Below, piece by piece: positions 12,671 through 33,566 of a stretch of 64,000 bases of DNA. The translations under genes and the position numbers were made by a program. The DNA lies in the NCBI GenBank assembly GCA_943353165.1, contig CALRAM010000001.1, positions 45,483-109,482 on the forward strand. Direction: 5' to 3'. Position 1 is the first letter of the stretch; each line of letters starts with the position of its first letter. Origin of the DNA: an uncultured Candidatus Saccharimonas sp. (GTDB lineage: Bacteria > Patescibacteriota > Saccharimonadia > Saccharimonadales > OMJO01). The notes below the pieces were generated by a model that saw only the letters and a program-made list of their open reading frames with translations, was not told where the DNA came from and did no database searches.

Positions 12671-13840
12671 ATGGACCTAGATATTAAACAATTAGCTATA
12701 GCCGTTAAAACTATAGCTGAAGAAAAAAACCTACCTGAAGCGACTGTTCAACAAATTGTTGAACAAGCATTAGCTGCAGCTTATCGCAGAGATTATGGCG
12801 ACAGAGAACAGGACGTGCGCGTTAATATGAACATAAATAACGGCGATGTTGATGTTTATATCAACAAAGAAGTCGTTGAGAAAATTGGAGATGGTAATTT
12901 TGAGATTAGCCTAGTAGATGCCAGCGTAATGAAAAAGAACGCCAAAATTGGCGACATCATAGAAGTTAAAGAGAAAATAGAAAATTTAGGTAGAGTAGCC
13001 GCTCAGACAGCAAAGCAGGTTATGCTGCAACAACTCAGAGAAGCAGAGCGGGATATAATAATGCTGGAATACGAAGACAAGATTGGAACTGTAGTAAATG
13101 CTATTGTGTCTCGTGTTGAAGGTCGTTTGGTTCGACTAGACCTAGGCAAAGCACAAGGCATAATGCCAATGAGTGAACAGATTAGCAACGAAAGGTATTA
13201 CCCAGGACAAAGACTCAGAGTATTTCTAAAAGATGTAGAACGTGGTTTTAGAGGTCCACAATTGGTTGTGTCACGGGGTAATAAAGAATTTATTGAATGG
13301 CTATTCCGTGGCGAAGTGCCAGAAATGGAAAGCGGAGCAGTAGAAATAAAAGACATAGCCCGCGAAGCAGGAGTTCGTAGCAAAATAGCTGTACATAGTA
13401 CTATACCCGGAGTAGATCCTGTTGGTACTTTTGTGGGCGGTAGAGGAATGCGTGTAAATGCAGTCATGAGTGAAGTTGGCGAACAAGAAAAAATAGATAT
13501 AGTAGTGTGGGCAGAGGATACAGAGCAATACATCATAAATGCGCTCAGCCCGACTAAGGTTACAAAGGTTATATTAGACAAGACAAATCTAAAAGCAAAA
13601 GTAGTAGTTCCAGAAGATCAGCTAAGTATTGCCATAGGAAAAAGCGGACAAAATGTCAGACTTGCTAGTAAACTGGCTGGTTACGATATCGATATTGAGT
13701 CTGATAAACCATCAGAAGAAATCGTCGAAAAATTAATCGATTCCAAGCCAGTGCCAGTACAACCATTGAAGAAAAAAGAACAACTAGAAACTAGTCTATT
13801 AGACGCAATCGAAGAACACGGAACAGAAACAAATAAATAA
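12671..13840 (+). CDS. nusA: transcription termination/antitermination factor NusA
   Basis: 389 aa with an N-terminal domain, S1 domain and KH domains (IAIGKSGQNVRLASKLAGYDIDI). Confidence 0.95.
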   Translation: MDLDIKQLAIAVKTIAEEKNLPEATVQQIVEQALAAAYRRDYGDREQDVRVNMNINNGDVDVYINKEVVEKIGDGNFEISLVDASVMKKNAKIGDIIEVKEKIENLGRVAAQTAKQVMLQQLREAERDIIMLEYEDKIGTVVNAIVSRVEGRLVRLDLGKAQGIMPMSEQISNERYYPGQRLRVFLKDVERGFRGPQLVVSRGNKEFIEWLFRGEVPEMESGAVEIKDIAREAGVRSKIAVHSTIPGVDPVGTFVGGRGMRVNAVMSEVGEQEKIDIVVWAEDTEQYIINALSPTKVTKVILDKTNLKAKVVVPEDQLSIAIGKSGQNVRLASKLAGYDIDIESDKPSEEIVEKLIDSKPVPVQPLKKKEQLETSLLDAIEEHGTETNK

Positions 13841-13881
13841 AAAAGCTAGCAGCAGCTGGCGAACCAGAAAAAATAATCAAA

Positions 13882-13908
13882 CTAGCACTCTTGACCAACG
13901 AGTGCTAG
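13882..13908. promoter_or_regulatory. CIRCE-like perfect inverted repeat (CTAGCACTC-N9-GAGTGCTAG) overlapping the candidate clpC promoter
   Basis: Each arm matches the CIRCE consensus TTAGCACTC-N9-GAGTGCTAA at 8/9 positions. The spacer begins with TTGACC (13891-13896), and TATTAT lies at 13915-13920. Confidence 0.55.
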
Positions 13909-13966
13909 TCTTGTTATTATTTAACTACAATTGAATAACTATATAGGGGATAAAAAATAATAATTT

Positions 13967-16462
13967 ATGTTGCCGAATAACGAAGAATATCAAGAGTTCA
14001 TAAATCATCTTACTGACAATGCACTGTCTAGTTTAAAGCATGCAGGAGCTATCGCTCAAAGTTTCGGCAGTGCTTATGTTGGAACGGAGCATCTATTGCT
14101 AGGTGTTCTGGCTCAGGATTCCAGTATAGGTGCCAAAATTCTAGAGTCCGCAGGAGTAACGCTGGATCGAGCCAGGTTAGCTTTAAACATGACATCTAAA
14201 ACTTTGGTAATAAATCTAGGCACAAAAGGCCTGAGCGAAACTGCAAAGCTTACTCTGCGCATGGCATATGACGTAGCTCAGGATTTTACCCAGGAATACT
14301 GTGGTACAGAGCATATTTTGTACAGTATATTAAATCAAAAAAATGCCAGAGCTACTACTTTGCTGAGAGACATGAATGTTGACATAGACTCGTTGCTATC
14401 GGAACTAGAATCTTTTTTGAACAGACAGCAATACGACGATAATGCAACTTCAGACGAAGTAAAGAAAAGAAATAGAAATAAAATCAGGTCAACCGCACTA
14501 GATTACTTTGGCACAGATTTAACGATGATGGCTAAACAAGGCGAACTAGACCCCGTAGTCGGTCGTGAAGTTCAGATACGAAGACTCATAACTATATTGA
14601 ACCGCAGAACAAAAAATAATCCTGTGTTATTAGGGGAACCTGGCGTAGGAAAAACTGCGATTGTGGAAGGCTTAGCACAAAGAATTGTAGCTGAAGATGT
14701 TCCGGACAGTCTCATCGATAAAAAAATAATAATGTTAGATTTAGCCGGAATGATAGCAGGAACCAAGTACCGTGGTGAATTTGAAGAACGAATGAAGAAA
14801 GTTATGTCTGAGGTAGAGAATAATAACCAAATTATCTTGTTTATCGACGAGCTACATTTGATAGTTGGCGCTGGCGCTGCAGAAGGTGCTATGGATGCGG
14901 GCAGTATTCTGAAACCTGCATTAGCTAGATCCAGAATTCAATTGATAGGCGCCACTACCACAACCGATTATACTAAACACGTTGAAAAAGATTCAGCATT
15001 GGAACGACGTTTTCAACCCATTCAAGTTCCTGAAGCATCAACAGCTGAAACCGTTTCTATACTAAAAGGGCTAAGAAAACATTATGAAAACTTTCATAAT
15101 GTGGTCATAAGTGACGAGGTTATATTAGACACGGTTACTATGGCAGCCAGATATATAAATGACAGATTTATGCCAGACAAGGCCATAGATTTAATGGATG
15201 AGACCGCAGCGCACCTACGAGTAGATAAAGGCAAAACACTTCCAGAAGTTCGCAAGCTCCAAAAAGACCTAAAGCTAATAAATATGAAAATAGAAGCTGC
15301 AGTAGATAACGAAGACTACGAAAAAGCAGCTCTAAAAAAACAAAAAGCTAGCCAGATATCAGAAAAATTGAAACAGTTGAAATCAGATGGAAAAACAGCA
15401 AACAGCATAACAGTTCGTAGCGAGGATGTCGCAGAGGTAGTGGCTAGAATGACAGGTGTCCCAGTTACTAAAGTTATTAGAGCAGAAGCAAAGTACTTGT
15501 TACACCTAGAAAAAACACTGGGCAAATATATTATTGGTCAGCACGAAGCAGTCAGCGCAGTATCAAAAGCTATTAGACGCAATAGAGTTGGCATAAGTAA
15601 TGGAAAGAGACCGATAGGCTCATTTATATTTTTGGGTCCAACTGGAGTAGGGAAGACTGAGTTAGCCAGAGTTTTGGCCAGAGAATTTTTTGGTAACGAA
15701 GATTCACTTGTCAAAATAGATATGAGCGAGTTTGGGGAGCATCATAATATTTCCCGTTTAATTGGTGCACCTGCAGGTTATGTCGGCTATGATGATGGCG
15801 GTCAACTAACAGACAAAATACGGCGACAACCATATAGTCTGGTTCTCTTTGATGAAATTGAAAAGGCCCACCCAGAAGTTTTTAACATACTACTACAAAT
15901 ACTTGAAGACGGGTATCTGACTGATTCAAAAGCTCGAAAAATAGATTTTACAAATACAGTAGTAATTATGACCAGCAATCTTGGAGCCGATAAACTTCAA
16001 AAAGAGGCTTCTCTGGGCTTTAGAGTATCGCTTCCAAGCGAACAAAAGGATTTGAACAATTTGCATCAAAGAAATACTGATAAGGTCCTAGAAGAGTTAA
16101 AGGAAAGTATGCGGCCAGAACTACTAAATCGTATTGATAAAACCATAGTTTTTAGAGCTCTTACCAAAAAAGAAGTATTAAAAATATTGGACTTACAGAT
16201 AGGAGATTTGCGCGGTCGTCTATTAAAACGCGGCATAGGTCTACATTTGAATAGTAACGCCAAAACACATTTACTAAATGAAGGTTACGATGCCCAGAAT
16301 GGCGTTAGGCCAATGAGAAGATTGTTGCAAGAAACAATAGAAGATCAAATAGCCTTCGGATTGCTAGAAGAAACCTACACGACAGGAGATATAATCAGTG
16401 TAAGCGTAAGTGGCAAGACTTTATTATATGAGCGCAAAAATGAATCCAAAGTGCTAAAATAG
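13967..16462 (+). CDS. clpC: ATP-dependent Clp protease ATP-binding subunit ClpC (class I AAA+, two NBDs)
   Basis: Two Clp_N repeats, Walker A motifs GEPGVGKT and GPTGVGKT, a middle coiled-coil region and a ClpB_D2-small C-terminus. Confidence 0.9.
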
Positions 16463-16466
16463 CAGC

Positions 16467-17435
16467 ATGTACACCTATAAAAGAAAGCTAAGTTTTGGGT
16501 TAGCTATGACATTTGTAGCGGTGCTCCCGCTCTTGTTGCTTGTAAAAAAACAGCAAATTATTGACTGGACTCAACTAAGGAATTATAAACCTGATTCAAT
16601 AATCTCTAAGCTAGCAGTAGATACTACTATGAGTAACCTTGGAAGACATTTGTTTTATGTAAATCATCCTACACTTCATGAAAAATCAACATTTGCTGGA
16701 CATTGCAAAATTAGTGAGCTAACAAACATTTTGGGATGTTACGTAAGTGGAGACGGTATCTACCTTTACGATGTCAAGGATCCTCGTTTGTCTGGCATAA
16801 AAGAAGCCACTTCAGCTCACGAAATGTTGCACGTAGCATACGAAAGATTAAGTGCTACAGAAAAAGTTAAAGTCAACAAAATGTTACTAGACGTTTATTC
16901 TAAAGTTACAGATACACGCATAAAAAATACTATTGCAAGCTACAAAAAAGCAGGTGCAGATACTACAAATGAACTGCATTCTATTTTAGGTACTGAAATA
17001 TTGGCTTTGACTCCTGACCTAGAGAACTATTACAAGAAATATTTTACAAATCGCACAGCAGTAGTCAAATATTTTAATCAGTATCAAAATGCCTTTGAAG
17101 AAAGAAAAAACAAAGTCGAGCAATATGATATTTCTCTTGCCAGCATAAAATCCAGAATAGAAAATCTAGAATATGACCTTAAAAATGAAGCTTCTAGCCT
17201 AGAAAACGAACGTTCCAGGATGAATAATTTGATAGCGAACAATCAAGTTTCGGAGTACAACCAAGCAGTACCCATATTTAATCGTAGAATAGAAGCCTAT
17301 AATAATAAAACCAAAGTCGTAAAACAACTAGTAGATGACTATAACGGTATAGTTATTGAACGCAACAACATTGCGACAGAAGAAAATGAACTTATCAAAG
17401 CCATAGATAGCAGTCCTGTAAATATTAAAGTTTAG
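16467..17435 (+). CDS. hypothetical membrane-anchored protein with HExxH motif and C-terminal coiled coil
   Basis: 322 aa with an N-terminal TM helix, AHEMLH (HExxH), a later NELHS motif, and a heptad-like Asn/Glu/Lys-rich C-terminal third. Confidence 0.6.
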   Translation: MYTYKRKLSFGLAMTFVAVLPLLLLVKKQQIIDWTQLRNYKPDSIISKLAVDTTMSNLGRHLFYVNHPTLHEKSTFAGHCKISELTNILGCYVSGDGIYLYDVKDPRLSGIKEATSAHEMLHVAYERLSATEKVKVNKMLLDVYSKVTDTRIKNTIASYKKAGADTTNELHSILGTEILALTPDLENYYKKYFTNRTAVVKYFNQYQNAFEERKNKVEQYDISLASIKSRIENLEYDLKNEASSLENERSRMNNLIANNQVSEYNQAVPIFNRRIEAYNNKTKVVKQLVDDYNGIVIERNNIATEENELIKAIDSSPVNIKV

Positions 17436-17481
17436 CATATTCGCAACACATTCGTTGATGTAATGTAGTATATTGTTAAAT

Positions 17482-18828
17482 ATGGCCAAGAAATCTAGTG
17501 TAGTTTATTTATGTAGTAATTGTGGATCTCAGAGCCCAACATTTAGCGGTAAGTGCTACCATTGCAACGAATGGAACACTATTTCGGAGCATTTAAATAG
17601 TGTGTCTGTGCAATCTAATAAAAAAGGTAGGGTGTTACAGTCACAATCCGTTAAGGCATCGCTAGCAAAAGATCAACCACGTTACATTTCCGGTATTTCT
17701 GAAGTAGATATGGTTCTAGGCGGTGGATTGGTAGCCGGTAGTGTTATTTTGATTGCTGGTCAGCCCGGTATAGGAAAAAGTACTCTTTTGCTACAAACAG
17801 CCTACGATTTATCAAAAAAGTATCCAGTTTTGTATATAAGTGGAGAAGAGTCTGCCCATCAAATTGGCCTGCGTGCAGAAAGGTTGGGTACTTTTAGCAA
17901 AAGTTTGCAGTTAGCTACTAGCACAATAGCAGACGATATAGCAGCTACAATCGCATCAGCTGATTTTAAAATAGTAATAGTTGATTCAATACAAACAATA
18001 GCTTGCAATGATATTTCCAGTGCCGCTGGGAATGTTAGTCAGATAACTAATAGCACCCAATTGTTGTCTGCTGCAGCTAAACAGTCAGGTACAGCCCTTT
18101 TATTGGTTGGTCATGTAACTAAAGAAGGTTCTATTGCTGGCCCAAAGGTTCTAGAGCATGTAGTGGATGTTGTATTGCAATTGGAAGGCGATAGGTACGG
18201 TGGTTTCAAGGTGCTCAGAGCTATAAAAAATAGATATGGTTCAACCAACGAAGCCGGTATTTTTGAAATGACAGACAAAGGTATGCAACCTGTCGATAAT
18301 CCCTCTAAGGCACTATTGTCTGAACGTCAGGTTAGCGATGGTTCTATAGTACTAGCCACATTGGAAGGCACGAGACCATTATTGGTAGAAGTTCAGGCAT
18401 TGGTAAACAAAACCAGCTACGGATACCCAAAAAGAGCTTCTAGTGGTGTCGATTTAAACAGGGTAAACTTATTGGTAGCTATGCTAGAAAGACGAACTAA
18501 ACTGAATCTGTCCGACAAAGACATATACATAAATATTGTCGGTGGCATCAAACTGACTGAACCAGCAGCTGATTTGGCTATCTGTATGGCTATAGCATCT
18601 GCAGCAAAAGGTATGCAACTAAATAGCAACTGCGTTGTTTTTGGAGAAATTGGATTATCAGGAGAAATCCGACATGTATCTCATGTTGACAAGCGTATTG
18701 CCGAGGCTAAAAAATTAGGTTTTGACGGTGCGATAGGCCCCGTTATTAAAGGTGGCAAAACAACAACAAATTATCATTCAGTCAAAGACATTCGTACCGC
18801 TTTAAACTTATTTCTAGAAAAGGACTAG
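17482..18828 (+). CDS. radA: DNA repair protein RadA/Sms
   Basis: Zinc ribbon CSNCGSQS..CYHCNEWNT, Walker A GQPGIGKST, a KNRYG motif and a Lon-like C-terminal domain. I chose the ATG at 17482. Confidence 0.95.
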   Translation: MAKKSSVVYLCSNCGSQSPTFSGKCYHCNEWNTISEHLNSVSVQSNKKGRVLQSQSVKASLAKDQPRYISGISEVDMVLGGGLVAGSVILIAGQPGIGKSTLLLQTAYDLSKKYPVLYISGEESAHQIGLRAERLGTFSKSLQLATSTIADDIAATIASADFKIVIVDSIQTIACNDISSAAGNVSQITNSTQLLSAAAKQSGTALLLVGHVTKEGSIAGPKVLEHVVDVVLQLEGDRYGGFKVLRAIKNRYGSTNEAGIFEMTDKGMQPVDNPSKALLSERQVSDGSIVLATLEGTRPLLVEVQALVNKTSYGYPKRASSGVDLNRVNLLVAMLERRTKLNLSDKDIYINIVGGIKLTEPAADLAICMAIASAAKGMQLNSNCVVFGEIGLSGEIRHVSHVDKRIAEAKKLGFDGAIGPVIKGGKTTTNYHSVKDIRTALNLFLEKD

Positions 18829-32903: not shown

Positions 32904-32930
32904 TTAGCACTCTTGACTAGAGAGCGCCAG
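32904..32930. promoter_or_regulatory. CIRCE-like element (TTAGCACTC-N9-GAGCGCCAG) overlapping the candidate clpP promoter
   Basis: The left arm matches the CIRCE consensus exactly; the right arm matches 6/9. It shares TAGCACTCTTGAC with the clpC upstream site. TTGACT at 32913-32918 and TATCAT at 32937-32942. Confidence 0.35.
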
Positions 32931-32963
32931 ATTATGTATCATGTAGGTTCAAAGGATATAAAT

Positions 32964-33566
32964 ATGCCAAACAGCTCGATGTTGATACCAACAGTCATAG
33001 AAAACGAAGGCCGAAGCGAAAGAGCCTATGATATTTATTCTAGACTTTTAAAAGATCGAATTATTTTTTTGGGAACAGAAGTAAACGAGCACACAGCAAA
33101 TCTAGTTGTGGCTCAACTACTGTTTTTGGATAACCAGAATTCTACAAAAGATATATATTTGTACATAAATAGTCCCGGCGGAAGTGTTTACGATGGTATG
33201 GCTATTTATGACACTATGAATTTCGTTAAATCAGATGTGCAAACGGTTGGCATCGGGCTGCAAGCCAGCATGGGAGCTTTTTTGTTAAGCTCTGGCGCCA
33301 AAGGAAAACGGTCTTTGTTGCCACATAGCAAGGTAATGATTCACCAGCCTTCTAGTGGAACGAGAGGCAAAGTTACTGATATGGAGATAGATCTAAAAGA
33401 ATCTCTAAATGTAAAAAAACTACTAAACGACATTTTAGCAAAAAACACTGGACAAAAATTATCCAAAATAGAGGTAGATGTAGACCGCGATTATTGGATG
33501 ACAGCCCAAGAAGCCAAAAACTACGGTTTGGTTGACACGGTTATATCCAAAGTACCTAAATCATAA
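32964..33566 (+). CDS. clpP: ATP-dependent Clp protease proteolytic subunit
   Basis: [31 protein letters not shown] plus catalytic Ser/His context ([16 protein letters not shown]). I chose the ATG at 32964, preceded by AAAGGA. Confidence 0.95.

Follow-up and report, generated by a model that had tools for sequence, protein, structure and literature searches.

A CIRCE-type operator embedded in the predicted clpC promoter of Saccharibacteria, a probable target of HrcA

The inverted repeat in front of the clpC gene of this Saccharibacterium is very probably an operator for the repressor HrcA (a CIRCE element) that is built into the sigma-70-type promoter of a predicted clpC-orf322-radA transcription unit. 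From the distribution of the operator sequence, HrcA appears to govern both the chaperones (hrcA-grpE-dnaK-dnaJ) and the Clp protease in Saccharibacteria. Binding of HrcA to the repeat, repression by occlusion of the promoter and control by heat or GroEL are what we infer from the comparisons presented here.

Control of groESL and dnaK by HrcA, through the repeat TTAGCACTC-N9-GAGTGCTAA, is the textbook case of CIRCE regulation (PMC3842655). According to Mogk et al. 1997, as cited in PMC7737663, GroEL keeps HrcA active in Bacillus. The HrcA regulon of Mollicutes comprises the dnaK operon together with clpB and lon (PMC5138195; PMC7737663), and the CIRCE of Mycoplasma pneumoniae lon lies directly after tig (PMC7737663). 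For clpP of Streptococcus salivarius, dual control by CtsR and HrcA is attributed to Chastanet and Msadek 2003, as cited in PMC3842655. Saccharibacteria and other Patescibacteria have tiny genomes with very few regulators, and the control of their gene expression is almost unexplored. A literature search for links between HrcA and Saccharibacteria or Patescibacteria returned nothing relevant, and we know of no description of CIRCE at clpC.

In this study, we examine the repeat and its surroundings in the window, that is, the whole 64-kb stretch of DNA analysed, and in related genomes. Feature coordinates are collected in Table 1.

Table 1. Coordinates of the features discussed, in the window unless a locus prefix is given
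Feature	Position	Strand	Description
nusA	12671..13840	+	upstream neighbour, ends 41 nt before the repeat; Pfam NusA_N, S1, KH_5
CIRCE-type operator at clpC	13881..13909	.	perfect 10+9+10 inverted repeat; 36.6 bits; orthologous site in 79/79 testable relatives
Left arm, clpC operator	13882-13890		CTAGCACTC
Spacer, clpC operator	13891-13899		TTGACCAAC
Right arm, clpC operator	13900-13908		GAGTGCTAG
-35 hexamer TTGACC	13891..13896	+	inside the CIRCE spacer, its first six bases
Extended -10 TGtTATTAT	13912..13920	+	hexamer 13915-13920; begins 3 nt past the right arm
clpC-type Hsp100 unfoldase gene	13967..16462	+	831 aa; Pfam Clp_N, AAA, AAA_lid_9, AAA_2, ClpB_D2-small; predicted regulated gene
orf322, conserved membrane-anchored HExxH protein	16467..17435	+	begins 4 nt past the clpC stop; homologue in 78/80 relatives
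radA/sms	17473..18828	+	TIGR00416, 515 bits
CIRCE-like operator at clpP	32904..32930	.	TTAGCACTC-TTGACTAGA-GAGCGCCAG; 3 mismatches; 34.2 bits
clpP promoter-like element	32913..32942	+	TTGACT-18-TATCAT, -35 within the CIRCE spacer
clpP	32964..33566	+	200 aa from ATG 32964; Pfam CLP_protease; NF001368, 307 bits; relatives 193-203 aa
Short hrcA, example	L205:1459-2169		
Short hrcA, example	L137:5141-5854	-	
Short hrcA, example	L215:10001-10714		

Inspection of the sequence bears out the perfect 10+9+10 repeat, ACTAGCACTC-TTGACCAAC-GAGTGCTAGT, that a previous sequence-only reading of this DNA had reported. The coordinates given there, 13882-13908, hold for the 9+9+9 core, CTAGCACTC-N9-GAGTGCTAG, whereas the full repeat spans 13881-13909. 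That reading had also counted a match to CIRCE at 8 of 9 positions in each arm, and the core indeed departs from TTAGCACTC-N9-GAGTGCTAA by two mismatches, at its first and last base only. The promoter that it proposed, TTGACC followed after 18 nt by TATTAT, is likewise present and has a TG in front of the second hexamer, which gives TTGACC-18-TGnTATTAT; the repeat is 58 nt upstream of clpC. Two CIRCE matches with no more than 3 mismatches occur in the entire window, and the number is still two when up to 5 are allowed; 100 dinucleotide-preserving shuffles of the window yielded none at the 3-mismatch threshold. A weight matrix trained only on the clpC sites of relatives, with the window left out, separated the same two positions (the clpC site and a site at clpP, scores in Table 1) from the next best position in the window, which scored -7.9 bits, and a matrix restricted to the arms gave 30.3 and 25.2 as compared to a maximum of 17.2 in 50 shuffles. 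Rfam contained no family for the repeat, the sole match being a chance-level one to MicC (21.8 bits where the gathering score is 90; E = 0.59). These sequence data support the identification of the element as a bona fide CIRCE overlapping the predicted clpC promoter.

The key test of this identification was conservation in relatives, because the 80 loci compared, one genome per species, had been picked by ClpC homology alone (72-77% identical). Nearly all of them are titled Candidatus Saccharibacteria or Saccharimonadales. One locus was left out since it has merely 20 nt of sequence upstream of clpC. A CIRCE with at most 3 mismatches is found just upstream of clpC in all 79 testable relatives, and 44 of these sites are perfect. 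Fourteen of the 18 arm positions (2, 4-9, 19-24 and 26) are identical throughout, the only variable ones being 1, 3, 25 and 27. When aligned on the element, the sites give the consensus AA-TTAGCACTC-TTGAC.tga-GAGTGCTAA-tTg.TaTAaT, and the intergenic DNA around them is conserved only at the AA before the left arm and at the promoter elements. The geometry of the promoter is kept as well: 78 of the 79 relatives have a -35-like TTGAC or TTGCA in the spacer and 76 have TAnnnT after the right arm (50 in the extended form TGnTAnnnT), with the two hexamers 16-18 nt apart in 74 of those 76. No further CIRCE was found within 10 kb on either side of clpC in the relatives' loci. On this comparative evidence the clpC site is functional and not due to chance, because every testable relative carries it there with most arm positions invariant and with the promoter geometry preserved. 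The invariance of the sequence and its fusion to the promoter are as expected if selection acts on a site of protein binding combined with a promoter, and not as expected for selection on an RNA hairpin.

Two other features of the relatives' upstream regions were observed. The outermost operator positions co-vary among the clpC operators L007-L086, C at position 1 being accompanied by G at position 27 in 7 of the 8 cases (p = 9e-6 by Fisher's test, with kinship ignored). The window operator belongs to this CTAG...CTAG class, which may reflect a lineage-specific shift in the half-site preference of HrcA. Separately, a hairpin AGCGR...YCGCT lies 20-70 nt past the -10 in the predicted clpC 5' UTR of 14 of the 79 relatives (L014, L016, L017, L022, L029, L030 and 8 others); it is absent from the window.

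The gene behind this operator encodes a protein with two Clp_N repeats, two AAA+ modules, a short middle domain and ClpB_D2-small. Walker A motifs are located at 223 and 557, and an LGF tripeptide occupies residues 683-685, where ClpP-docking loops lie. We classify the protein as ClpC-type rather than ClpB-type because of this domain layout and the LGF tripeptide; no equivalog cut-off was reached in NCBIfam. An identical ClpC is present on metagenome contigs as long as 510 kb and in MAG GCA_965070995.1. The order nusA, clpC, orf322, radA is shared by 64 of 80 loci, and nusA is upstream of clpC in 66 of the 80 relatives. Co-transcription of orf322 with clpC is probable, and radA is probably the last gene of the unit. 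The remainder of the window holds housekeeping genes: dnaE, ribosomal-protein clusters, rpoBC, tig and aminoacyl-tRNA synthetases.

The product of orf322 had no match in either Pfam or NCBIfam. It combines a transmembrane helix at the N-terminus with HEMLH (HExxH) at residue 118 and a C-terminal half that resembles a coiled coil. The protein might be a metallopeptidase of the membrane, or a partner of ClpC under the clpC operator. Homologues, with a median identity of 42%, come after clpC in 78 of 80 Saccharibacterial species, and the gene is deleted in one strain with an identical ClpC (L003). Additional observations concern the loci themselves. A Saccharibacteria-type ClpC (73-76%) in the same synteny occurs in L015, L031, L037, L039, L049, L060, L062 and L076, from MAGs labelled Chlamydiae, Nevskiaceae, Burkholderiaceae, Limnocylindria, Verrucomicrobiia or Dormiibacterota; these contigs are probably mis-binned. 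A heliorhodopsin gene (PF18761; L091:13519-14301) is located on the same scaffold, about 3.5 kb past the right end of the window. The sample names that go with the window (MEHR18-2_SAMN0833109x) may, from their form, point to environmental water metagenomes.

The second match in the window follows tig, 33 nt before the clpP start codon and 19 kb from clpC. Relatives of this locus were picked by ClpP homology (79-85% identical) with the motif disregarded, and three gave DNA. All three are Saccharibacterial tig-clpP-rpoB loci with a perfect CIRCE 17-23 nt before the clpP start codon, and one of them, L233, carries TTAGCACTC-TTGACTAGA-GAGTGCTAA, i.e. the spacer of the window site in the same place. 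Twelve further clpP loci with the motif are among the metagenome matches listed, which were selected by the motif itself. At position 22, which is invariant in the clpC sites of all 79 relatives, the window clpP site carries C in place of T, so that it may be weaker.

Public gene calls extend ClpP to 217 aa from a TTG inside the CIRCE spacer (P0239, P0240; window 32913-33566). This database start is probably wrong; ATG 32964 fits better with the length of the protein in relatives (193-203 aa) and with the AGGA upstream of it. In a sister lineage (L197, L204, L207 and L116), in which ClpC is about 48-56% and ClpP about 65% identical, the order is clpC, orf322-like, clpP, radA, and the operator is placed before clpP, within the cluster.

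The reach of the motif beyond the Clp genes was examined by an exact-pattern scan of metagenome contigs for TAGCACTCTTGACNNNNGAGTGC, which returned at least 121 sites in at least 120 loci; these are motif-selected and are not confined to Saccharibacteria. Among the matches listed, the first gene downstream encodes HrcA in 34 cases, DnaK in 24, ClpP in 12 and ClpC in 11, followed by an FmdB-type zinc-ribbon protein (5), Hsp20 (4), GroEL/ES (4), ClpB (2) and DnaJ (1); 14 are other genes and the rest are incomplete. In related contigs the motif is found before hrcA, dnaK, dnaJ, groES/EL, hsp20 and clpB. A scan of viral contigs gave 2 matches, both irrelevant. The FmdB-type zinc-ribbon ORFs (about 100-116 aa, beginning MPTYEYxCxxC) directly follow a perfect CIRCE in L099, L102, L115, L142 and L177, and their product may belong to the HrcA regulon of these lineages without having been recognised as such.

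HrcA itself is widespread in the group. Judged by NCBI names, homologues are abundant in Saccharibacteria/Saccharimonadales, and the largest HrcA cluster among the matches listed (17 sequences) is Saccharibacterial; its database relatives carry PF01628, the JGI name 'heat-inducible transcriptional repressor' and the NCBI names Candidatus Saccharibacteria or Saccharimonadales. The metagenome proteins are homologous to B. subtilis HrcA (phmmer E 1e-20 to 1e-37), the query itself scoring 241 bits against Pfam HrcA. The Saccharibacterial protein matches PF01628 and reaches 189 bits against TIGR00331, just below the cut-off of 197. HrcA of these loci is short, 226-250 aa (about 237 aa in Saccharibacteria), and its alignment with the B. 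subtilis protein covers residues 1 to about 120 and about 228 to 335, an internal segment of roughly 100 residues being absent. This segment probably corresponds to the inserted dimerising domain of the Thermotoga maritima structure 1STZ. Lacking these residues, the short HrcA may differ from the model in its oligomerisation and in its control by GroEL. In Saccharibacterial loci the genes are arranged as ftsH-murJ-lepA-gmk-[CIRCE]-hrcA-grpE-dnaK(-dnaJ), with a perfect or near-perfect CIRCE before hrcA. In split operons every unit carries a CIRCE of its own, dnaK often a tandem pair and dnaJ a separate site. The tandem sites before dnaK are 46-48 nt apart, the second without the TTGAC spacer (L137, 4133 and 4179 on the pattern strand; L225/L226, 7864 and 7912; L152, 4098 and 4146).

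With the B. subtilis query, phmmer found no hrcA in 84 kb of this organism, which take in the window and the 10 kb beyond either end of it, nor any match in the clpC loci of the 80 relatives, and the HrcA homologues P0001, P0120, P0022, P0016 and P0237 all come from samples other than that of the window. We infer that this genome nevertheless has hrcA, because the gene is ubiquitous in the lineage, the perfect clpC palindrome has been maintained and the operator is strictly conserved across 79 species. The palindrome might instead serve a regulator other than HrcA, hrcA having been lost and its site taken over, which would agree with the lack of hrcA in these 84 kb, with the off-consensus outer positions (CTAG...CTAG) of the window sites and with the deviation at position 22 of the clpP site. 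We consider this improbable. The hrcA genes of Saccharibacteria are themselves preceded by the same element, the outer-position variants of the window sites are also found among relatives, and a perfect 10-bp palindrome argues for continued selection. To our knowledge, HrcA is the only protein that binds CIRCE.

A second alternative, that the hairpin is primarily the intrinsic terminator of nusA or an RNA-stability element and resembles CIRCE only incidentally, is very improbable. As RNA, 13872-13925 does form a stable structure (-17.8 kcal/mol; z = -6.5), the repeat is flanked by A-rich sequence on its 5' side and by T-rich sequence on its 3' side, and the end of nusA is close by. However, the loop is 9 nt long, the tail, CUUGUUAUUAUUU, is mixed, a scan for consensus terminators found none at clpC, and the T-rich tail is at the same time the conserved -10. 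A structural hairpin should preserve pairing and not sequence, which is the opposite of the fixed arm positions seen in the 79 species, and the same sequence stands before hrcA, dnaK and clpP in unrelated contexts. A purely structural terminator was rejected on this invariance, seen in place of covariation, and on the recurrence of the sequence in other gene contexts. In a secondary role, the CIRCE hairpin might, according to the folding model, help to terminate transcripts that read through from nusA.

A chance palindrome or non-functional relic can be dismissed as vanishingly improbable, given the empty shuffles on which it was rejected, the orthologous conservation and the second site at the functionally linked clpP. 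Control by CtsR was also rejected, as the clp promoters have no heptad repeats and no ctsR lies upstream of clpC. The CtsR box (A/G)GTCAAA-NAN-(A/G)GTCAAA, with up to 3 mismatches, was not found near clpC or clpP; 5 weak matches occur in the window, all inside unrelated regions.

Operation of the clpC element as an HrcA operator would be as follows. An HrcA dimer would bind the two half-sites and cover the -35 hexamer as well as the entire -35/-10 spacer, the latter being filled by the right half-site, with the extended -10 beginning just beyond it. Because the half-sites cover these regions, binding of HrcA and of RNA polymerase would be mutually exclusive, and bound repressor would keep the polymerase off the clpC promoter. 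Inactivation of HrcA would then raise clpC transcription. By analogy with Bacillus, derepression could occur when unfolded proteins draw GroEL away. The same operator and promoter design is carried by clpP. Derepression would lift the Clp unfoldase and peptidase together with DnaK. The left arm would not be transcribed from the clpC promoter, so that clpC mRNA would lack the CIRCE hairpin.

Comparison with characterised systems reveals both parallels and departures. The inverted repeat is that of the classic HrcA/CIRCE system, and hrcA of Saccharibacteria likewise resides in a dnaK operon with its own CIRCE. In contrast to that system, the targets here include clpC and clpP, and the operator forms part of the promoter, its spacer carrying the -35; in B. 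subtilis, CIRCE is placed downstream of the transcription start and ahead of the start codon. The Saccharibacterial repressor is also about 100 aa shorter than that of B. subtilis. Mollicutes resemble this lineage in having reduced genomes, few regulators and HrcA/CIRCE at genes for AAA+ proteases and disaggregases, and the order tig-[CIRCE]-clpP closely parallels tig-CIRCE-lon of M. pneumoniae. Their targets are Lon and ClpB, whereas those found here are ClpC and ClpP in an unrelated phylum, the Patescibacteria. As in S. salivarius, a CIRCE precedes clpP, but in that species HrcA acts with CtsR, whereas here a CtsR box is lacking and HrcA would act alone. With the CtsR regulon of Firmicutes (ctsR-mcsA-mcsB-clpC, clpP and clpE) the system shares the targets clpC and clpP and the linkage of clpC to radA, which are joined in an operon in B. 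subtilis. It differs from that regulon in having no ctsR, mcsA or mcsB upstream, no tandem GGTCAAA heptads and an inverted instead of a direct repeat.

The sequence-only reading had noted this absence of ctsR-mcsA-mcsB before clpC, correctly, since the upstream gene is nusA, and had suggested a re-wired heat-shock regulon. The inclusion of Clp genes in the regulon stands, with sites at clpC in 79 of 79 relatives and at clpP in 3 of 3. Yet the regulon is re-wired only relative to the Bacillus textbook: the host is a Saccharibacterium (Patescibacteria/CPR) and not a Firmicute, and the missing genes are therefore no departure from expectation.

The extension of HrcA/CIRCE control to clpC and clpP is logical and apparently undescribed. 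For heat-shock biology it is an incremental advance and unsurprising in principle. For Saccharibacteria it provides a defined regulon that can be put to the test and a promoter layout that is conserved (-35 TTGAC, extended -10 TGnTATAAT), which is of use in the annotation of CPR genomes and in the design of regulated or inducible promoters for newly tractable Saccharibacteria. The findings suggest that one repressor switches protease and chaperones together, in parallel with an independent evolution in Mollicutes. A wider reading, to which we give slightly less than an even chance, is that the entire proteostasis network in Saccharibacteria, and probably in the wider Patescibacteria, is under one master regulator, a truncated HrcA without the inserted domain of about 100 residues, with the operator fused to the promoter and the -35 serving as the CIRCE spacer. 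This network would consist of the chaperones and ClpC/ClpP, plus radA, orf322 and the FmdB-type zinc-ribbon protein. If this were true, the last three would be newly tied to HrcA, and in these minimal epibionts Clp-mediated proteolysis would be directly linked to the availability of chaperones.
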